A stretch of DNA of 64,000 nt from assembly GCA_976226885.1 (NCBI GenBank), contig OZ320313.1, positions 68,696,001 through 68,760,000 on the forward strand, written 5' to 3'. The notes under the pieces are model-generated. The model saw only the letters and a program-made list of their open reading frames with translations. It ran no database searches and had not been told where the DNA came from. This DNA is from Iphione sp. A-MEVVRFRX5. Lineage: Eukaryota. Position 1 is the first letter of the stretch. Every line of letters starts with the position of its first letter. This document shows positions 36,402-64,000 of the stretch, piece after piece. A program made the position numbers and the translations under genes.

Positions 36402-36707
36402 TGTAACTGCGTGGCTGCGGCACCGCGGCATACAAGGGGTGCTGCGGCACAGGTGGATTGGACTGGTAGGGTGCAGCGGCACACCCCCGTGCGGCACTCG
36501 TAGGGGTGCTGCGGAGTAGGAGGGGTCCGGTACCCGGATGCTGAAGAGACTGGGGATGGGTATATAAGGGAGTTGGCCCCTCGGGCAGTTCAGATTACGT
36601 TTGGTGCTCACTGTTGGTGCTCACTGTTGATGCTCATAATTGCTCTTACTGAATAAACCTCATTACCTTAACTGGAGTTATGTCTTACTTGCGGAGCGGA
36701 CGTTACA
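36402..36707 (+). mobile_element. LTR (306 bp) truncating the gag 5' end; no TSD
   Basis: TGTAAC...GTTACA ends, tatataagg, AATAAA. Flanks CCTCC and CTATT differ. Confidence 0.7.
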
Positions 36708-44500: not shown

Positions 44501-47500
44501 ATTACGACCACGCTACCCGTTACTTCAACTGCTGGTGATAGGCTCATTCAAGCCTTATATCAGCTGGAGACCAGATCCAGGTGCGTTGTTGGTGGACGCC
44601 TTTACAGTCAATTGGAGAACATTTCAATTTATTTACGTGTTTCCACCTTTCCCATTTATTTCCAGAGTCCTCCAGAAGTGGCGGCATGAAAAGACAATGA
44701 TGGTTCTCAACGTGCCGGCTTTGAAGACACATGCGTGGTATGGTCGGATCTGCCAGTATCAAACAAAGGACATGATCACATTCCCAGCCCAAAATAACAA
44801 TCTAATAAATGTGTTCAACAGCCCAGATTGTCGAGACATAAGCTCCATCTCACTCCTGGCCGTTCTCTTCTAAACATCAAAGTGGAAAGGTCTCTCACCA
44901 AGACAACATTGAGAAAGTACATGTAGAACTCTTGGAGACCATGCACTCCAGAACAAATCTATTCCTACCTGAATCGCTAGCCCACGTTTTGCGTCCTTAG
45001 AAACATTGATCCGTTGAAGCCTTCATTACAAGAAGCCCTTATGTTTCTCCATTCTTTGTTCTAGGCAGGGTTAGGTTACAGTGCAATCAACACTACCCAT
45101 AGCACCTTATCTGTTGTTATAAGATCTTTTGAAGGGGTCCCCTTTGGACAACACAAACTCACCACTAGAGTGTTAGGGAGTATTCACTAGAGTGTTAGGG
45201 AGTTCAATCTTAGACCCCGACAGGCTAGACTCAAATACACATGGGATGTGGAGATGGTACTCAATTTCCTCAAACAGTGGTTCCCTCTCCATTCGCTATC
45301 TCTTGAACAAATTTCTCTCAAGACTTCCACTCTCATTCTTCTTGCGTCCTGTGGTAAGATATAAATGGTGCATAACATTGAAGTATCAAATATCCATGAG
45401 GCGGGACAGGGCAGGGTCCAGATAAACTTTGCGTCACCCTTGAAACACAATCGCCAGGGTAAGCAACCAAATAGGATCATTCTCACCGGGTTCCCTCAAG
45501 AACCTGCCTTTGTGTTGTCACCCATTTGCAGGCTTACAGAGCAAGAACTGAAGATATCTGGGGGGACCAGGACAGACTTTTTATTAGTTATTTACCACCG
45601 TCGATAAGTCGATAACCACAGGGTCCCTTAGCAGATGGATCAAGGAAGTCATGACCAGGGCAGGCCTAGACACTCAGACTTTTAGAGCACACAGCACCAG
45701 ATCTGCTGTGGCATCCAAACTACACGCAGTGGGGATTCCGCTTTCTGACATCCTCAAAGGTGGCATGTGGAGCCATGAGAATATGTTCAAGGAATTTTAT
45801 CTCCAGCACATCATTTTTGTACGGGTCGTTTAATACGGTTACCTTACATGGTTGATTTTTTTCTCTCAGATGGAAGGTTGTCAACCATGTTACAGTATGT
45901 TGCTACTACTGCGTATTGACCGTGCTGTCCTCAAACCTGTTACCCTAAACATCTGTATATGGACTCCACCTTGCGGAGTAATGCTGACTCAAACTTGTTC
46001 AGTTACCTGAAACTTGTTGATGAGGGACTTCAAGTTTGAGGAAGTATTGTAGAGATGTACGGGTAGTGACACCTGCGGTACCGCAGCGAGATTACATGAC
46101 AGTGTACTCTGTGAACCCTGAAGTGACTAGCGGCTACGGCCCCGTAGGCATTTTACAGTGTAATGTACTTAGTGAACCTTGGGGATAGGGACGGCTACGG
46201 TACCGTAGGCGAAATTAGTGTTAAAGGTGACCTTGGACCCTGGATTCCCAGGCACCTGCTACATTGTAATTACTTGCTAGATTCTGATTGGTAAAGAACA
46301 ACTACACTTGTGATGTTGTATCCATTTTATTCCATGACGAGATACACTGTTACTATCACTGTTGGTCACATGACATGCTGGTTTAGTATAAATAAGGGCC
46401 CTGTGAGGCCAATAAAACAGTCTGCACTTGGATCTCTTGAGTGGAACTTGTTACTTTGGGAATGCTAAGCTGAACAAACCCACTTGGACTTACCACTAAG
46501 GGTGGATGCTAAGAGGGAACTACACTGGAATACTAGCAGGATAGTCAAGGCAGTACAGCAGTACACAATAGTTGGATTACTCCAAGTGGGAAAGCAAACA
46601 CGCAAATTACAGTATTACAAAGCAAGGTGGCAGTCCAGGCCCACCACCTTGGGTCTGGACTGGTGGCTTGGTCGGCCAGAGCTTTGGTTACTGAGTTGGT
46701 TATATAAACATTAATAACCCTACCCTGTCTTTCAGAGGAAGACCTGGACTGCCACTTAATGAGGTGCTCTCCAAAATCTTGTTTGTTCAGGTTTGAGTAC
46801 AGCCCGATTACTACCTCAAGGCTGATGTGACCAACTACAGATGGCGCTGCATCTCTACGTGGACTGCCACCTTGCTTCGTAATACTTCCTCAAATTTGAA
46901 GAAAATATCTCATATCATCTAATATGTTAGATTATTTTTTTCAGTTCTGGACTAAGAATGATGACCTCTTTTATACTTTTAGTGTGTCAGAAGTCTGTAA
47001 AATGTGTAAATTATTGGCCCAGGGCCCTTTCAGGCCTCCAAATGGCTCTGGACACAAAGCACACATGCAAGGAAAGGTCCTGTTGGCAGTGTTGTTAGTC
47101 ATGTTATATCGTTTTTTTCCACATGATGTCATCCGTGGTATGGGAAACAAATCTGTATGCATGGAAAGCAGTGAACAGTCATCTCATACCTCATCCAGTA
47201 CTTAAAGCGATTGAAATATGTATACAGTGTTCATTGGGTACCATTTATGCCTGTAAATGGCTACATTCATCACCCCAACCAAATGAAATGAAAACATGTG
47301 AAATGCATCCAAATACACAGGGGAACCCATCTGAAATGGGATTTACCCAGTATTGCAACATCACTGATAATACTGTGAGGCATATCAAATGCACATGTAT
47401 TTCGATATTAGCATATAAATAGAAAACTGGAAGACGCTATTTACTGATGCAGATGGTGCTACAGAAAGATCAACTTTTTTTCTGTTCTGGAAGATTCCAG

Positions 47501-50500: not shown

Positions 50501-53500
50501 GCTTGATATTGGTGGCTGGTCAAGGCTTTAACATGGTGACACCATGGAGAGAGCCGACACTGCTCCTGTACACTACCCTCGCACACCATACCATACCCCA
50601 CCCCTATGTCACCAAGCTGCATCACAAAGTAGCCCTGTTACCAATGGAGGTCATATCTGCGGTCAAAGTGTGAGGTCAGCAGATAGAATGACCTCCATTA
50701 TATGCATCCGGTCGAAACTGAAACTGGGGGAGGAGCCTATTCTTTGATCTTAGAGCCGGCATGGAGGCTGGGCCTCCAGTACCACTTCTCCTGAAACCCT
50801 ATGGGAGTACCTATGTTGGAACTCAAATCCTGATTTCTTTCAAGTTGAGTGTAAGGGGGAGGAGGCCAGAGCGGGAGGGAACAAGATAAGATTGAGTGAC
50901 AGCTCCTCAGAGAGCAGGAGGGAACTGGGTGGGGAGTGTCAAGCATGCTACTGGACCACGAGGACAAGGGGGGACTAGAGTGGGAGGGAACCGGGTGGGA
51001 GTATCAAGTACAGGCTGCTGCCGGGGTGTCTGATCTCCCGAGGGGAGGGAGCGAGAGCCAACAGGCTGCTGCTGGGGCGTCCAGTCGCACCATGACTGCG
51101 AGCAGGCAAGGGGGAGGGAGTTGGAGCCAGCAGACTGCTGCCGGGGTGTCCGGTCGCACCCTGGCTACGAACACCTGAAGGCAGGGGGCTACAGCAGGAG
51201 GGAACCCGCCACCGCTGGTCCCCGGCCCGCAAAAGTCGGCATTTTGCGTGAAATTTAGTGAGAGAACCACTGAGAGCTGCTTGGGTGCTTGAGTCAAGCT
51301 AAAAGTCGGCATATTTTGTGAAAAGTAGTGCCCCTTCACTGGGTCAGTGATTGAGAGAATATGACCTCCATATGCAGCGTTCGCTGCAGGTATCTTGTCA
51401 GGCATACGTGACCATTGTTTATAATCATTAATATATCTTCTTTATACATATATTTTTCTCCTTTTAGGCCGAATCCACCAAAGACGTCGCAGCTTCGAAG
51501 GAGGCACTTGAGAGAGCTAGATCTGCTTTCCAGCAAAGTCTGGATTGCTGTGAGAAATTGGAATCAGGAATATCACGCAAAGAATATGCAGAAATGAAGT
51601 CTAGACTGTTGTTAAATATAGGTACGATAAACAAGTTACCCTGCGTGAAAATGCTGACTGACTTTTAGAGAATGCACACACACTGATTTTTCATGAAGTT
51701 CTTTCATGAGGAATGATTTGAAGAAAACACGTAGTCTTCAATGAGTTGGTGTAATTAATATGCAGCCAAACCTCCCGACTTTTACTTTATGGTTGAAAGA
51801 ATTTTGCCTGCTTCTGGTGGCCGGTGTGATCAAAATTTTGAGTAATTTGAAGTTTTGTCTTCTAAGTAGTGAGGTCTGACTGTGTTGTTATGTAAAACAG
51901 TTCTTTTTATTGTTTCTTGATTCATTTATTTCAGGTATTGTCCTTGAACAGAAGGGCAATATAAAAAGGGCCTCTGAATTGCTGAAACAAGCTATACAAA
52001 TATCGCAGTAAGTAATGTATATATTTTACAGATGGCTATATGGTCAATGATGGCAGAAAACTGGAATTTTCTCCATTGTACAGTTACTATTCAGGGGCCA
52101 AGTAATGTATAGTAAAACCAATTTTGTTTTCCATATAGTCTGCCAATGTATTTAGGGAATGTTACCATACATTTCATGTCTGTAAAATGTTTTCATTTTT
52201 TCCTGCAAGGACACATAATCTAAAGGAGGATCTATACCGTTGTCAGCATACCCTGGCTGAGATGTTCAAGAAGCATGGACATCTTGGCCAGGCTATCCGT
52301 CTTTATGACATGGCTCTCAAATACTGCCAGTCAGTGAAGGACAAAGTGGCTGAGGTGGAGATTCTTACACAGAAGAGTTTGGTAAGCGTCGTACACGTAC
52401 ATGTAATTGGACATAGTGTACGTGGCACTTCTGTTTTCTTCTTGAAGTTGCATTACATGTATTTGTACAGAAGTAGAGTATATGTGGTGTACATGTACAT
52501 TTGAAACTTATTAACCAGATTACGTCCGTCACATAGATTTTTGTACAGATACCGGATAATCTGTTTACTCAAACAGGAAAACATAAAGTAAAATACATCC
52601 ATCCCTCAAGTTGAGTTATGGTTAATGCAGTTTTCCGGTTGTCAAGTCTCCAGATGGCAAGGTTCAACTGTAGTTGTTATGTAGCTATCACCTCTGTAGA
52701 GTCTGCCTTTATACCCAGATAAGGTGTTAGAGCTGGTCAATTCTTTTGAGGTCCAGCATTTTGGCCATATTAGACATAACTGATACATACCAGAGTGCAT
52801 TTAAAGATTACTGTCTTGCTTTCAACTTAAAAGTCATCAGGTTTGCGGTTTCAGTTCTACACACCCTACCTTTGAAGTTTGATCTGAATATCTTATTCCA
52901 GATTTATGTTCAGCTTGGTGACTTGTTTGCTGCTCAGCGTGCCATAAGGAAAGTCTACAAGAGCAGTGCCTCAAGTGAAGATACCAGAGAACGAGCGTCT
53001 ATGATTTTCAAGACTGGTAAATAGTGAATAATTGAGAATTGATCAGTTTTGTTTAATCACAAGCACCTTTGGCGCCTGCACTGGTTGGAAAGAGTGGGCA
53101 TGTAGGTTTGTGGGGGTAGTCACAGACTGGTGGGGGGGGAGAGGGGTCAAAGTACAGACTCATCTGGCCTTTTACAACCCTCGGTTCTGCTTGACTGGAC
53201 AGAGGTGGGGTACTGTTTACAAATCTGCGTAGGGATACTAAGCAGGGTTCCTACTGCACAGGGAAAACAGGGAAAATGGCCCAAAAAATTCCCTGTCCGG
53301 GAAAACACAGGGAATTTGGAAATTTGGGGCAAACACAGGGAAAAAAATTTTGAAAATCCATTTTAAAAAATCAAAAAATTGTTCATCATTAGTTGAAAAA
53401 TCATCCATATGTAATAAATTAGTAAGAAATACTGCATAGCAGTCATGAACATTAACTGCTTGTATTTTCAATGGAGGTCATATTTGCACTGGAAGTGGAG

Positions 53501-56500: not shown

Positions 56501-56725
56501 GCTCAATTACTAGGTCAAGTAAGGCAAAGGCGGAGGTATGTTTCTTAAGAGAGAAAAAAATTATTATTTTTTGTTCCAGTAATTGTCATGGATCGTTTAA
56601 TGGAGACATTAAAGAAGACACCTGAAGATGATTATGAAAGTCGAATGGTAATCTATGAAAAAATGGGTGACAGAGCTGCCCAGGTAGAAAGTTTCAAACA
56701 AGCTATTGCCTCATATCAAAATATG
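38577..56725 (+). CDS. TONSL: Tonsoku-like protein (TONSL/NFKBIL2), N-terminal TPR region; partial, continues past the window
   Basis: Exons: 38577-38592, 48481-48576, 49943-50181, 51468-51621, 51935-52007, 52210-52381, 52902-53016, 56580-56725 (1011 nt, phases compatible, GT-AG). The translation MDEIDKYRKEKRKAERKGNLKEASQFCNFLGELLAKQGRYEEAIEEHQQEL..GVAVANRKIGECY..QRAFATIGRTYL..EMKSRLLLNIG..LGDLFAAQRAIRK..IYEKMGD matches TONSL TPRs. The 16-nt first exon is inferred from its GTAAGT donor, phase and promoter context. Confidence 0.9.
38919..39103. mobile_element. hAT-like MITE (185 bp)
   Basis: TIR CAGGGCTGGG...CCCAGCCCTG with internal TGTCGC repeats. Confidence 0.7.
39950..40352. mobile_element. 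MITE with GTCCAAAC-repeat TIRs, 7-bp TSD and an internal (TTAGGG)3 core
   Basis: AGGTAGT-CGGGTCTGAGTCCAAACG ... CGTTTGGACTGGAACCCG-AGGTAGT. Confidence 0.85.
40829..41604. mobile_element. Tc1/mariner-superfamily non-autonomous element with internal tandem repeats
   Basis: TA-CAGTGCAGTCTCTATT ... AATAGAGACTCCACTG-TA. Confidence 0.75.
44402..44523. mobile_element. Small fold-back (hairpin) insertion within the DIRS element
   Basis: gtgacgggtagcgcggacgtaattttt.. versus reverse-complemented right end gtaacgggtagcgtggtcgtaattttt.. Confidence 0.75.
46048..46611 (+). mobile_element. Solo LTR (564 bp) related to the LTR at 56892-57896
   Basis: TGTAG...ATTACA ends, perfect 4-bp TSD GTAT (46044-47 and 46612-15), TATAAATA and AATAAA. 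Shares ccaagtgca(g/a)actgttttattggcc(t/a)cacagggccc and other blocks with the 57-kb LTR in opposite orientation. Confidence 0.88.
50646..51369. mobile_element. Non-autonomous DNA transposon, ISL2EU-like (GG..CC ends, AT TSD), copy 1
   Basis: AT-GGAGGTCATAT ... ATATGACCTCC-AT. Confidence 0.7.
53243..54543. mobile_element. hAT-like non-autonomous element (CAGGGTTCC TIR, CAGGGAAAA sub-repeats) hosting a nested insertion
   Basis: CAGGGTTCC at 53243 and GGGAACCCT at 54534-54542. No clear TSD. Confidence 0.6.
53473..54340. mobile_element. ISL2EU-like element, copy 2, with a (GAGTGAGAACAT)n tract
   Basis: AT-GGAGGTCATAT...ATATGACCTCC-AT. The first ~130 bp are homologous to the element at 50646. 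Confidence 0.7.
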
Positions 56726-56891
56726 GTAAGTTCCTGTATTTATTGAAGTTGACTTATTGTACATTGTTATCGTAATACATGACCTGCACTCAGGTCTTAA
56801 AATACCTATGCTGTTAGGTGGTGTGTGTCACACAGAAAGGAAGTTTTTTTTAGTAAAAATTGGAAAAATTTAGTGGGGTGTCTTTTGATAT

Positions 56892-57896
56892 TGTAATTTA
56901 ATGGCTGACTTCCTCACTTGGTGTAATCCAACTAAGTCCAACTCGCTTAGTTACTCCACTATAATTCCAGTGATATCTTATCCAAGTCCTAACTCCAGGA
57001 TAATTCTCTGTTAAATCTCCCACTTGGTAGATCCAGCTATGTCTAGTGCTATCCTGTCTCAGTTACTTCACTGTAGTCCCAGTGCGGTTACATCCAAGTG
57101 CCAACCCTAGGTAATCCAAGTGGGTTTGTTACATCCCCAAATCAACAAGGTCCACTAGTGAGGTCCAAGTGCAAACTGTTTTATTGGCCACACAGGGCCC
57201 ATATTTATAGTCAAACTCCTGGCCATGTGATCAATACAATGTATCAGTCATGGAATAAAAAGGCTACAACATCCCAAAGATTTTTTTTGTCTACCAATCA
57301 TATTGCAGGTGCCTTGTCATCCAGGGTCCAAGGTGACCTTAAACATCCTATATGCCTGGGGTACCACAGGCCATTTAGCATAAATGACTGTGGTGCCATA
57401 GGCGGCCCTAAGCTTACTCTCCAGTACACATGCACTAAAGTCTTAGAGTTCACCAAGTACAACACAAGTGGCTGTGGTGCCACAGGCAACGTTACTATTA
57501 CAATCTATACGACTGTGGCGCCGCAGGCAACGTCACTACTAAGTCTTAGAGTTCATCAAGTACAACATAAGTGACTGTGGTGTCACAGGCAACGTTACTA
57601 CTACCACCTACACAACTGTGGTGCCACAGGCAACATTACTACTAAGTCTTAGAGTTCATCAAGTGCAACACAAGTGGCTGTGGAACCACAGGCAGTATTA
57701 CTATTACGTCTTAGAGTTCGCTAAGTACAACACGAGTGGCTGTGATGCCACAGGCGACATTACTACTAAATCCTAGAGTTCATCAAGTGCAACACAAGTG
57801 GCCGTGGAACCACAGGCAGTATTACTATTACGTCTTAGAGTTCGCTAAGTACAACACGAGTGGTTGTGGTGCCACAGGTAACATTATCACATTACA
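56892..57896 (-). repeat. 3' LTR (~1005 bp) with a tandemly expanded U3
   Basis: TG...CA ends, minus-strand TATAAATA and AATAAA near 57180-57208, tandem units actaagtcttagagttc(a/g)..aagt(a/g)caacac(a/g)agtgg at 57435-57890. Confidence 0.85.
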
Positions 57897-57959
57897 CTCT
57901 CCCCACCTTAAAAATAGCCTGCCGGGGGAAGTGAAAACCTGTTTCCCTGAGAAGTACAT

Positions 57960-58620
57960 CCTGAGCCAATATAAACCTCCATAGAGGGTAACAGTTGATC
58001 TACTAACTCCTTGGATAAATACTAGTAAATTTAGCAAAGCCTCCATAGGAGGTAATGGTCACCTAAGCAGCAAACTTTTCCTGAGTATACAAGTTAATCA
58101 TTTAATCTGGCAAAGCCTCCCTAGGAGGTAGTGATATCACAATAACCCAAAAGATCACAGATTAACATCCCAGTAACTGTAAGAGCCTTACTCTTTTTGT
58201 GGGGGTACAGTCCCCCTTTCATTTTACTGTTAACGTCCTCACTCTAACAACCCTTGAGTAGATGTGGGTAGATCTGACAAAGCCTCCGTAGGAGGTAGTA
58301 ATTGTCTAGGTAACACAAGATATCACAATAAATAAAAGATCACAGCTTAGCATTCCAGTAACCGTAACATCCCTGCTCTTTTTGTGGGGGTACAGTCCCC
58401 CTTTCATTTAACTGTTAACGTCCTCTACCTGTCCTCCGAGTACACAGGTTAAAGCTATCTAATCTGGCAAAGCCTCCATAGGAGGTAGTGATTAACAAAC
58501 AACATCAGTAACAAGGGTAAACTAGCGCAAAAAGACTCGTCCTATCACATGGCATACATCTCAACGATTTTTTTCTGGGGGTACAGTCCCCCTTTCAGTT
58601 ATACCTATCCAACATCTTTC
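57960..58620. repeat. Imperfect tandem repeats between the accessory ORF and the PPT
   Basis: Recurrent caaagcctcc(a/c/g)taggaggt and tttgtgggggtacagtccccctttc blocks. Confidence 0.8.
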
Positions 58621-58684
58621 ACAATCCACCCTGGCAGTTCCTTGTCATTACTCTGGGTGGATTCCCAGCTCCCCCCCCGTTTTC

Positions 58685-60262
58685 CTAAGCCGCGCGGGAA
58701 TCATGGGTCATTGTGGTGTCAGGGGTCGGGCATGGGGCAGAGTTAACGTCAGTCGTCGGCACTCGGATCTGAACGGGAGGTGCCCCCATACATATGTCGT
58801 ATATTGTTGGCTGTGTACTCTGCCGATGGGCGCGGACCTCCTGAACCTCACGTTGCCACCCGGGATCGTAGATTCGCGTTTTACTGGGCCCCCATCGCAT
58901 GGACTCTAGCACTCTTTCGGCGGCGTCGACGGTCTGGTTATGCGTCGAAAGTGTGGAGTCCAGTCGCCCCCAGTCTTGGGAGATAGGTAAAGACACCCCC
59001 GGCAGCAGCAGAGTAGGTCGTTGGCACAGGGGCTCCAGAAGAGTGCCGGGTAGGGCCTCCTCATCCTCCGCTAGGCACAACACCCAGGCAAGGGCTGCCC
59101 CTGCCATCAGTCGCTGCGCCCCAGTCATGTCATGCCACCGACGTGGGGGCCAGGTAATGGCCGGCGGCAGACGAACAGCCGCTGGGACCACACTGGCCCT
59201 CATGGCCGGCTGGTGAGGTCGAATGAGACCATCCAAGACGTCCCGCATCCTCCGGGACACGGGTTTCACGAACTCCGGAGGCAGATACCGTTGCACTAAT
59301 TGCATCAGGTGCCCTCCCGGCAGGGTTGGCGACGTGGGGGCGTCTCCTCCCTCCCCAGGCAGGAGAAGAGGATCGGCTGTCGCGACTGCCCCCTCCGGCT
59401 CTGTGGCTGCGCGCAGCTGTGCCAACACGGCATCAAAGTCCTCCACCTCGGGTAGGCCGGCCCGCTCCTCTCCAGATGTGTCGCCCCCTACCGGTAGGTC
59501 TGCGGGAGGTGTATACGGTACCACTGGGAGGTCCAGCTCGGGAAGGGCTGGGTTTGCCTCATCCGGTGCGCCCACCTCTGGTTCACGCTCAGGCTCGATT
59601 ACTTGGTCTGCCTGCGCCTCGGGCCCCAATGGCTCAGGGCCTTCCCCGTTCAACCCTTGTGGCTCCAGAGGGGCCGGAGGAGCTGGAGCAGGGTCGGGGA
59701 CTGGGGGATTTTGTACCTCTGGTGCGGCGTGGCCATCCCCCTCAAGACCTCCTTCTGCTCCCTCCCGTGGGGGAGAGCCCAGTCGTACATATCGGGGGAG
59801 TGGGGGTGGAGCTGCTCGTCGGGGGCACGTGGCTAAGTAGCTCATGATCTCCTCCTCCCCCAGGTACCCTCCTTCTAGTCGTCTCAGTCGGGCCTTACAT
59901 AACGCCGCTGTAAGTTCGTCATCTGGCACAGCGATAGTCTGTCCCCCCAGTGGGGCTACATCATACAAGGGCCGGTACAATTTCTCGGTCAAACCTAGCG
60001 CTACTACCCAGGGGTGGTAGTTCCTCTGGTGGGTCACCCAGTAGTGCTCATCTGTGATGTAACTGGGGCACCAGAGGCACATCATGTCCCTCCCTCGTTT
60101 CCCATGATGCTTCTCATCTAGGTGACGCTCAAAAGAGGGGCCCTTGAAGAAGGGACGCTTGCGGGGTAGACATAGCTCGCACAGCTTTACCCCTGGGGGA
60201 AGGGGTCCCTCAGATTTCCAAGTAAGCGGGAGGCGGGGCGTTGTAATTTTCTCCCGCGGCAT
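58685..60262 (-). CDS. Retrotransposon accessory ORF: two C2H2-type zinc fingers, Pro/Glu-rich linker and C-terminal helical domain (525 aa)
   Basis: ATG at 60262 in ACCATG context, no internal stops. CELC-x15-HLDEKH and CLWC-x12-HQRNYH at 60014-60181. Confidence 0.75.
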   Translation of the reverse strand: MPREKITTPRLPLTWKSEGPLPPGVKLCELCLPRKRPFFKGPSFERHLDEKHHGKRGRDMMCLWCPSYITDEHYWVTHQRNYHPWVVALGLTEKLYRPLYDVAPLGGQTIAVPDDELTAALCKARLRRLEGGYLGEEEIMSYLATCPRRAAPPPLPRYVRLGSPPREGAEGGLEGDGHAAPEVQNPPVPDPAPAPPAPLEPQGLNGEGPEPLGPEAQADQVIEPEREPEVGAPDEANPALPELDLPVVPYTPPADLPVGGDTSGEERAGLPEVEDFDAVLAQLRAATEPEGAVATADPLLLPGEGGDAPTSPTLPGGHLMQLVQRYLPPEFVKPVSRRMRDVLDGLIRPHQPAMRASVVPAAVRLPPAITWPPRRWHDMTGAQRLMAGAALAWVLCLAEDEEALPGTLLEPLCQRPTLLLPGVSLPISQDWGRLDSTLSTHNQTVDAAERVLESMRWGPSKTRIYDPGWQREVQEVRAHRQSTQPTIYDICMGAPPVQIRVPTTDVNSAPCPTPDTTMTHDSRAA

Positions 60263-61127
60263 GGTAGGCCGTCTCGGTAACCGGTCAGTCTTGGCTCGGT
60301 CAGTCGTGGCTCGGTCGGTCAGTGGCCGTCCGCAGTCAACTGTGGGGTCACAGTGACCAGGGAACACTCACCAGTCCGGGGCGGTGTGGCTGTGGGGGCA
60401 CAGTCGATAATCGCCAGACTCGTTTGGTCGGTGGTAGAGCTAGTGTCCCCCGCGGAGGTCAACTCCTATCTCTAGTCCAGTCGCTTAGTCCTCGGTGATA
60501 CCCCCTGCGGGCCCGCAGTCCAAAACAAAGTGTAGATGTCCCTGCGGGGTCACAGGCGTAATTACCAACCTGACTGTGGGGGCGCAGTCGAAGTCAGCGG
60601 CCGGCGTCCTCGTCGAAAATTTCAAGCGGTAGACCTCCCTGTGGCACCACAACCGCGATAATTCCTCTCTCCCATGCTGTCTGACGACCTTTCTCGCCTT
60701 TCTATCTCCCTCTCTTCAACTGTGCTTTCAGCCGGTGTTGGGGTTCTTGGCTTTTCCTCTCTTCACTGAATTACGGTAGAAGGGGTTCCCCAGAAACGAA
60801 AGCGAGGCTGGCGGATGTTTGGGTTGTCCGCTTCCGGGATTCCCCCCTTCTTGACTGTGGGCCCCCAGTCACCGAGTCGTTTATCGACTGTGGTACCACA
60901 GCCTCTGAATTCCTGCTTTTCTCCCATTTAACCCCCCTTTTAGAGGTTCATTCGGCCTCTCTCCCTACGAATTACGCTGAATCTGGGTAGAGATGTCCCC
61001 TCGGCCTGCGTCCTCGCAGTTCCGCTGTCGTAAGTTCCGTGTCACTGCGGTTCCACAGTCGTATCGTCAATGTGATTACGCAGTTTCCCACTCGACTGCG
61101 GTTCCCCAGTCGATTCCATCTGTTCGC

Positions 61128-61164
61128 TATATAAGAGCGTGCGATCGGCGGCTACCCGTCAGTC
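61128..61164 (+). promoter_or_regulatory. Pol II core promoter of the antisense accessory gene (TATA + Inr)
   Basis: TATATAAG at 61128-61135 and TCAGTC initiator at 61159-61164 (A at +33 from the TATA start), 33 nt upstream of ATG 61194. Confidence 0.6.
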
Positions 61165-61193: not shown

Positions 61194-61458
61194 ATGGAAC
61201 TACCAGCGTACCTTGCAGGCCTCTCCCAGGGAGGGGCCTTTCTACCAGAAGACCAGGAGAGGTGCCCTCCTGTGGGAGAGGATTACTTCCCTGAAGAGCA
61301 GAAAGGTTATCCCCCCATGGAGGATAGGTAGGCACTTACATGCAGCTAGGGGCCTTCTCCAGTTACCAATTGCCATGTTGGATTTCCTGAAGCTGGTTAC
61401 TGATGTTCCTTTGGAGGTTCCAGGTGAGTTCCAGGTTTTTACAGTTACTTGTGTTGTA

Positions 61459-61504
<46 letters not shown>

Positions 61505-62226
61505 CTTCTCCTGTTCCTCTTTTCAGATCTCAGCCCCCGGATCCGTACTATCGGTTTATTGATGTGGGCACCCCTGGGCCTACGATAAGGGTGTATGGGT
61601 TGCATCCCATGTCCACCCATCCGCTGTACATCCCGGCTCCGGGCAACATTCGGTTGTATGGCCCGGATCATTGGGTGGGCATCTCTGTGCACCCGGTGAT
61701 CCAGCCAGTTCTGCCCCACAGCGACGATCCTCTGTGGTCCCGCCAGGACTCGGTATCTCCCGACCTCGGTTTGGGAGAAGTATCCAGCTACCTCGCCTCC
61801 CTCGACAACATCGAATCCAGCCACACCGATGAGGACGACTGGTCTCATTGTTCGATGACCTCCAGTCAGCTGGACCCCTGGCCCTCCTCGAACTCTGACG
61901 TCAGCGCCTCGCCCTCATATAGCTGTTCTAGTGGTGTGGCCTCGTTCACCGAGGTTGATTCTACGAGCACTTCCTCCTCCGCCACCTGTCCTCGGTCGCC
62001 CTCCCCGGAGGACACGAGCTCGCCGGTGGACACGCCATCCCGCTCGCCTGCCCCATCCAGTTCTCCTGATGTGGGGCCAGTCCTCGGGCGGGCTCCCCTC
62101 TCCTCCTGGCCGGCCGATTTCCTGTCGTCGTGGTACCCCGACCTGCAGCCCGGGGACCTGGCATGGCATCCCATCCTAATCTCCGACGAGGACGAGGATG
62201 AGGATGCCCCTCCCTCCTCTTCTTAA
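61194..62226 (+). CDS. Spliced antisense accessory gene of the retrotransposon (exons 61194-61327 and 61527-62226; 277 aa, acidic Ser/Pro-rich)
   Basis: AG|GTAGGC donor and a T38 + polypyrimidine + TTTCAG acceptor join two ORFs in frame (..MEDR|SQPPDPYY..). ATTAAA at 62350-62355 followed by a U-rich tract. Confidence 0.65.
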
Positions 62227-63122: not shown

Positions 63123-64000
63123 CTATACGGAGACCCCGCCACCGCCGTCTGGGGCGGAGAGCTCCGCCTTCTTCCGCCAGGAGATGATCCACCGGGGTAA
63201 TCGTTCCCCGCGATACAACCGTAATCGATTCCGATGTACTACTCTTGGCCTCGCTTGTTTAGAGCGTTGCACAATCAGTCGTTCATCATCCAGAGCTCGG
63301 ATAACTAGCCACGGCCCTGACCAGGGGAAGTGAATCTTCGGGCTTCTCCCTTTTGGTGGCTGTGCCTCATGGAGCCATACCACCGCCCCCACCTTCAAAG
63401 CTTCCCCCTTCATTCTCCGATCATAAGCTCGGGCCTGGGATCGAGCCGCCGTCCTCAGGTTCTTCCGGACTCTACCGTATGCTTCTTGAAGTCGTCGCAA
63501 CATTTCCCCTACCGGGTCAGGTAAGTCTTCCACCTCTGGGTTTTTCGAAGGAAGCCCGTCCATCGCATGCACCGGAAGAGTAACCTCACGTCCGAACATC
63601 AGGTAGTTCGGAGTGTACCCGGTGCTAGCTTGTGGTGAAGCCCTATACGCCATCATGAGAAAAGGGAGTGCGGTGTCCCACTCATCTTGGCTCTCGTGGC
63701 AATGTGCTTTGATCATCTTCCCCAAGGTCCGGAAGCTACGTTCAATGAACCCGTCGCTTTGCGGGTGTCGCGGGGTGGTCCTGGTCTTCTTGATGTGGAG
63801 ATAGTCACAGAGGGCCGTGATGATCTCGCTGCAGAAATTTGTTCCCTGGTCACTGTGCAGCTCGTGGAAACAACCATAGCGAGCGATTACCTCCTCGGCT
63901 AGGACCCGGGCGATCTTTGGGGCTTTCTGGTCTGGTAGGGGGAACGCCTCAAGCCACTTTGTGAAGTGATCCCCCACCATCAGGCTGTAGCGGTTTCCTC
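63123..64000 (-). CDS. Gypsy pol: integrase catalytic core and C-terminus (open to the window edge)
   Basis: GDHFTKWLEAFPL, HSDQGTNF, TTPRHPQSDGFIERSF, WDTALPFLMMAYRASPQASTGYTPNYLMFGRE, WSGPW, VVHRNRL. No stops. Confidence 0.95.
   Translation of the reverse strand, partial: GNRYSLMVGDHFTKWLEAFPLPDQKAPKIARVLAEEVIARYGCFHELHSDQGTNFCSEIITALCDYLHIKKTRTTPRHPQSDGFIERSFRTLGKMIKAHCHESQDEWDTALPFLMMAYRASPQASTGYTPNYLMFGREVTLPVHAMDGLPSKNPEVEDLPDPVGEMLRRLQEAYGRVRKNLRTAARSQARAYDRRMKGEALKVGAVVWLHEAQPPKGRSPKIHFPWSGPWLVIRALDDERLIVQRSKQARPRVVHRNRLRLYRGERLPRWIISWRKKAELSAPDGGGGVSV

Follow-up and report, generated by a model that had tools for sequence, protein, structure and literature searches.

Palindrome arrays in a Ty3/Gypsy retrotransposon of Iphione sp. 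are very probably binding sites of the element's own C2H2 zinc-finger protein

We analyzed a 64,000-nucleotide stretch of the genome of Iphione sp. A-MEVVRFRX5 (assembly GCA_976226885.1, contig OZ320313.1, positions 68,696,001 to 68,760,000; hereafter, the window). On its minus strand lies a young Ty3/Gypsy (Metaviridae) long terminal repeat (LTR) retrotransposon of an animal, which carries a palindrome with 6-bp arms and a 2-bp spacer in two arrays, one in its LTR and one between two divergent accessory genes (Table 1). The arrays are a real, conserved feature of the element. From comparisons among related elements, we consider it very probable that the palindromes are binding sites of the two-finger C2H2 zinc-finger (ZF) protein which the element itself encodes, and probable that this protein both binds them and acts positively.

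All 20 palindromes of the original prediction were recovered at their predicted starts (10 in the LTR and 10 internal), each with at most one mismatch. Seven match CTGYGGNNCCRCAG exactly (57472, 57513, 57616 and 57678 in the LTR; 60505, 60888 and 61045 internally), and the other 13 carry one mismatch. When up to one mismatch is allowed, 22 matches are found in the window, compared to 0.37 ± 0.65 expected from 100 dinucleotide shuffles of the window, in which the maximum was 3. The two matches besides the predicted ones lie at 36415 and at 46073 (inside a sister family's solo LTR); across the window's 56 kb of host sequence there is one palindrome site. A weak eleventh internal site, with two mismatches, is found at 61006. 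Because 8 of the 10 LTR copies sit inside 41/62-bp tandem units, the LTR copies are not independent of one another. The internal copies lie in unrelated sequence, as had been proposed, and beyond the motif they share no more than a few flanking bases. The two central nucleotides had been said to vary freely; this is true of internal sites, where all 16 dinucleotides occur over 214 sites in 21 elements, but not of the LTR, where TG occupies 6 of 10 centers. The final palindrome does lie close to a TATA box, ending 18 bp before TATATAAG at 61128. Measured against six related copies, which are not independent of each other, the arms of the internal array are 82% conserved, the spacers 69% and the background 64%; one of the six (C1c) has no excess of arm conservation. 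Both arrays were present in all 9 other element copies examined.

The ZF domain marks a large lineage, with about 1,900 candidate places in the 1.18-Gb genome, of which each ZF-domain search scored 150. We sampled 61 elements representing 12 finger-2 helix groups, and added 20 further loci later. A de novo palindrome search, allowing spacers of 0–8 and treating internal and LTR-side DNA as separate inputs, returned a palindrome with a 2-bp spacer whose half-site varies by helix group: CTGYGG (DEHYW, the group of the window's element), CTACGG (DEYYW), TCGTGG (DEQSW), YCGYGG (EDQS/TW and DDQTW), TTGGGG (DVHAW), TYGGGG (DVHSW_a), CTTGGG-n (DEYAW), TCGYGT (DV/TQSW), TTGYGW (EM/LYSW) and, among the added loci, TGGCGG (the HEQSW clade). 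The internal and LTR-side regions share one palindrome in 12 of 13 sampled helix types; in some elements the top LTR-side match of the de novo search was another repeat. In the groups with a 2-bp spacer, site density was 5–14 per kb in the internal region, 0–0.5 per kb in the ZF open reading frame (ORF) and 0–0.14 in shuffles. Profiles built from internal sites only found 3–13 sites per element on the LTR side of the same group in 11 of 12 groups. Related profiles cross-react, as is expected because their half-sites share bases. In one element, L060, a further array of CAGTGG-NN-CCACTA/G lies downstream of its own LTR array (about +3580 to +3800, counted from the start of the ZF gene); it perhaps belongs to a neighboring element of an unsampled family.

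The half-site co-varies with the ZF protein. A tree was built from 60 of the 61 ZF proteins (all but the truncated L084) with the finger region excluded; it came from a quick search and carried a long-branch warning at two deep joins. Contrasts were then made with one pooled site finder on one element per subclade, giving 21 elements with 7–15 sites each, compared to 0.5–1.4 in shuffles. Where the +2 and +3 residues of the finger-2 helix were unchanged, half-site profiles showed no difference in 11 of 13 contrasts, including the distant pair DEHYW_a and DEHYW_b; where these residues had changed, the profiles differed in 7 of 7, three of them independent sister contrasts (p<0.01). We also ranked the ZF protein's 326 variable columns by leave-one-clade-out prediction over 10 or 7 clades, taking as base labels the majority calls from the contrast analysis. 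Y74 (helix position +3 of finger 2) ranked first of all columns for motif base −6, and H73 (position +2) ranked first for base −5.

A residue-to-base rule was fixed in advance and applied to the 20 new loci. It held for DEYYW (three loci), A/DEHYW (two loci, one of them on the LTR side only), DEQSW (two loci) and DVHAW (one locus). Three loci were uninformative: L110 and L111 lacked an array, and L120 was unparsed. In the HEQSW clade the motif TGGCGG was present in both regions at 9 of 9 loci. L118 combines a DEQSW helix with the TGGCGG motif; because it is 97–99% identical to His-bearing copies, we read its helix as a single-copy change.

Several observations weigh against ZF-cognate sites. 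At base −5 the advance rule failed in the HEQSW clade (9 loci), predicting C where G was found; His at helix position −1 accounts for this miss, but only post hoc. Two pairs, L078/L069 and L052/L080, have different profiles although their +2 and +3 residues are unchanged; the changes in these pairs are elsewhere in the helix or in the linker. No explanation was obtained for bases −3 and −1, a linker residue ranking fourth for −3; a pairing of a linker Arg with G at −3 was rejected as not top-ranked. The residue-base pairs also depart in part from what we take to be the canonical C2H2 code. The ZF gene, the internal region and the LTR are adjacent and co-inherited, and the comparisons comprise only about 7–10 independent clades and three independent sister changes. 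A pattern search gave no TATA box for the antisense accessory gene in 8 of 21 representatives. Finally, DVHSW_b has a weak motif with a 1-bp spacer and no LTR-side sites. In its four elements (L071, L093, L094 and L100, which were left out of the pooled tests) the half-sites are TCGGG and usually only one arm is good; altered dimer geometry or a loss of LTR control is possible there.

The ZF protein has classical C2H2 fingers: all eight ligands (C-x2-C...H-x4-H) are invariant in 27 of 27 aligned rows. In 6 of 6 pairs tested, third codon positions of its gene are far more diverged than first and second positions. A structure model predicts two zinc-finger-like units with the beta-beta-alpha fold (predicted local distance difference test, pLDDT, 86), and weak fold matches of the finger region were mostly to C2H2 domains. 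Pfam gave weak C2H2 matches in a few members of the ZF family and no match for either accessory protein of the window. The conserved helical C-terminal domain of about 200 amino acids (58703–59338) had no Pfam, ESM Atlas, sequence or fold match. In the fold searches neither ZF-protein domain had a hit reaching E≤0.001 or Z≥5, a null that demonstrates neither an absence of relatives nor a new fold. The N-terminus had no homologue outside the genome among proteins of near length, and alignment of the C-terminal domain found none among longer proteins, which is weak evidence. Among 1.84 billion representatives searched with a profile there were 47 matches, and the 6 examined were generic C2H2-type proteins; none of 167 proteins compared with the ZF protein matched far beyond the fingers. 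In ESM Atlas, residues 1–160 led to unnamed or C2H2 clusters and residues 310–510 to nothing usable.

From sequence comparisons we infer binding, dimerization, activation over repression and feedback on the ZF gene. A dimer of the ZF protein, with each subunit on one 6-bp arm, would occupy the arrays upstream of the LTR TATA box and of the internal TATA box of the antisense gene. Once bound, the factor would activate or de-silence elements of its own family and no others. It may also feed back on its own gene, the nearest palindrome starting 19–119 bp before the ZF ATG in 21 of 21 representatives.

The original prediction had called the sites an operator for the ZF protein. The assignment to this protein is strongly supported by comparison, through family specificity, sharing between LTR and internal region, and helix co-variation. 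The repressive sense of the word is less probable: the sites lie upstream of two TATA boxes, a placement which fits activation better. We consider it unlikely that the ZF protein instead represses or limits its own family, as a copy-number control or an immunity system acting like a phage repressor at a divergent operator. Such a role would suit the divergent genes on both sides of the internal array, the closeness of the nearest site to the ZF start codon in all representatives, and a fast-diverging module that could define immunity groups. However, the sites do not cover either TATA box. The last palindrome lies 17–24 bp before the antisense TATA box in 13 of 21 representatives, and there are no sites just downstream of this box in 12 of the 13 elements in which it was found. 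The LTR copies, moreover, are tandem-amplified in the manner of an enhancer.

It is improbable that the sites are bound by another protein of the element, whether Gag, integrase or the antisense product. The antisense gene is suitably placed, directly downstream of the array, and has a homologue in 61 of 61 elements sampled. Against it, the antisense proteins of L055 and L075 are 97% identical whereas their ZF proteins and motifs differ (motif p=0.008), and between DEHYW_a and DEHYW_b the antisense domains are only about 54% identical while the motif is the same. This comparison across families covered, of the three, the antisense product.

As its alternative, the original prediction offered pairs of host RUNX sites of the kind found in the enhancer core of murine leukemia virus; this we now regard as very improbable. 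The host does have a Runt gene, TGYGGT occurs in 13 of 40 half-sites of the window's element, and a RUNX1 dimer can bind a palindrome: in the accessible part of PMC2952845 this is TGTGG-N4-CCACA of the GM-CSF enhancer, whose half-site is similar to that of the window's family. The full TGYGGTY, however, is present in only 4 of 40 half-sites. Inverted cores are spaced by N2 nine times and by N4 never, while the dimer described in that part of PMC2952845 needs 4 bp, is a host factor and has no family specificity. Sister-family arrays (CTACGG, TCGGGG, TTGGGG, TCGYGT and TGGCGG) lack the RUNX core altogether. Additional RUNX binding is possible in the window's family alone.

Families within one genome can use different host factors, so each family might be read by a separate host transcription factor or a host repressor zinc finger. 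We give this very little credence: it would require many factors with one symmetric geometry, it would leave unexplained why residues of the element's own helix top 326 columns, and the sites are conserved, not lost. RNA or DNA hairpins whose sequence is read by no protein, suggested by the self-complementary motif, are largely refuted, because the two arms vary independently (left and right arms of one site agree no more than random half-site pairs at any position, over 214 sites), and a 2-nt loop would be too short and the sequence is family-specific.

The second accessory gene runs antisense to the element and has a predicted intron (61328–61526) with matching phase. It evolves more slowly than the ZF gene: L058 and L098 are 92% identical in the antisense protein and 55% in the fingers. 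The element thus behaves as two parts: a slower backbone of gag, pol and the antisense gene, and a regulatory module of ZF gene, internal region and LTR that diverges fast and would give co-resident families separate specificities. The antisense protein (61527–62226 in the window, after the intron) ends in a hydrophobic-acidic motif, P-[IV]-[VILE]-[VIL]-[SELD], in 51 of 54 long copies, which we take to resemble a SUMO-interacting motif (SIM). Because of this likeness the product may be an anti-silencing partner, which we offer as a lead.

Table 1. Coordinates of the retrotransposon's features, and of a related solo LTR, in the window
Feature	Position	Strand	Remarks
Solo LTR, sister family	46048..46611	+	three palindromes, two of CTACGG type
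3' LTR	56892..57896	-	1005 bp; ends TGTAAT...ATTACA; 4-bp target duplication ATAT
LTR TATA box	57204..57209	-	TATAAA
U3 array	57356..57877	.	10 palindromes, ~150–670 bp upstream of LTR TATA box
Polypurine tract	57897..57914	-	
Accessory ZF gene	58685..60262	-	525 amino acids; two C2H2 fingers, helical region, variable Pro/acidic middle, ~200-residue helical C-terminus
Two C2H2 fingers	60014..60181	-	residues 28–83; finger-2 helix D71-E-H73-Y74-W-V-T77
Internal array	60340..61109	.	10 dispersed palindromes in divergent intergenic region between accessory genes
Antisense-gene TATA box	61128..61135	+	
Antisense accessory gene	61194..62226	+	conserved domain of ~60 residues; acidic Ser/Pro tail
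3' end of pol (integrase)	63123..64000	-	

The gag (297-codon) and pol (1266-codon) frames are both open and extend past the window, with protease, reverse transcriptase, RNase H and integrase following gag in that order; the proteins related to the reverse transcriptase and RNase H, about 60% identical, are of Ty3/Gypsy type. Outside the window, at 67576–68580 in its numbering, is the 5' LTR, which differs from the 3' LTR at one position. No env-sized ORF was found in the element, and the interval between pol and the 3' LTR is occupied by the two accessory genes. The LTR also has a CCAAT-type box at about 57298 and AATAAA at about 57180–57185. The interval that separates the U3 array from the CCAAT box (about 57300–57335) contains CCTGGR-NN-YCCAGG, often followed by CACCTG; this sequence also occurs in the LTRs of L045, L047, L048, L052, L054, L057 and L059, invariant despite their differing arrays, and is a candidate host-factor site. 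Between the ZF stop codon and the polypurine tract (57973–58601), there are about five copies of CCTCC-N3-GGAGG and three of GGGGG-TACAGT-CCCCC. Of 14 elements checked, 9 also have the former downstream of the ZF gene; these repeats are possibly small RNA hairpins. In L021, the primer-binding site beside the 5' LTR resembles what we take to be the 3' end of a tRNA-Leu. L031-L032 (C1c) is internally deleted, with LTRs 99.7% identical, both arrays kept and no long ZF frame, and is a candidate non-autonomous element depending on the factor in trans.

The solo LTR, at a distance of about 10 kb and in opposite orientation to the element, has a 4-bp target duplication; DEYYW is the helix encoded by its full-length relatives. 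The insertion is flanked, on the plus strand at about 52187–52400 and 56590–56730, by pieces resembling exons of a host gene, which may be a TPR-containing tonsoku-like gene.

The logic of an element-encoded factor with its own sites would, by analogy, match that of VANC-VANDAL and of foamy virus Tas (Bel-1); the element belongs to neither. For the VANC proteins of Arabidopsis Mutator-like VANDAL elements, binding and demethylation were demonstrated, and in the available text of PMC5735166 short motifs gather in non-coding DNA of the element, are partly tandem and co-evolve by family. VANDALs are plant DNA transposons with non-palindromic motifs in a single orientation (PMC5735166, same portion), whereas here the carrier is an LTR retrotransposon of an animal, the sites are palindromes whose internal copies have no tandem origin, and the protein is a C2H2 protein in which helix residues track the motif. 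Tas is one viral factor serving both the LTR U3 and an internal promoter (PMC7390438, accessible part), and the motif in our elements is common to the LTR and the internal region, the two places where a Tas-type factor would act. Foamy viruses are Retroviridae with env, and according to PMC7390438 the two Tas promoters are little related in sequence. Here, in contrast, one palindrome is found in both promoters, the internal TATA box found is that of the antisense gene, pol is of Ty3/Gypsy type, no env-sized ORF exists in the element and the accessory protein is a C2H2 protein. Retand/Tat elements are Gypsy elements with a long region between pol and the 3' LTR that holds tandem arrays, with antisense ORFs and family-specific repeats, and with a proposed regulatory role (PMC11963269, part of the text); they differ in being a plant lineage, and that part describes no cognate-site or residue-base link. 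TRP28, the Retand antisense ORF, had no match among the element proteins scanned. PMC13547354 and PMC2774666, in their accessible portions, mention accessory genes and no such self-regulating system. Full-text searches, in a literature thin on subscription papers and Repbase-type records, found no description of such a system for an animal Gypsy lineage. We put it at somewhat better than even that the lineage encodes its own dimeric ZF factor and that a dozen or more orthogonal factor-site pairs radiated in this one genome, each a private, foamy-virus-like switch of the LTR and of an internal promoter for a SIM-bearing anti-silencing partner, with the natural series spelling out a residue-to-base code.

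Ty3/Gypsy elements are generally taken to depend on host transcription factors. Self-encoded regulators with co-evolving sites are established in complex retroviruses (Tas) and in plant Mutator-like elements (VANC). If the ZF protein does bind the palindromes, regulation of the complex-retrovirus type would have arisen independently in Metaviridae, and many young families would have a mechanism for coexisting in one genome under separate control. The elements would then offer a natural series of orthogonal factor-site pairs in which to see how a protein and some twenty dispersed sites switch specificity together.

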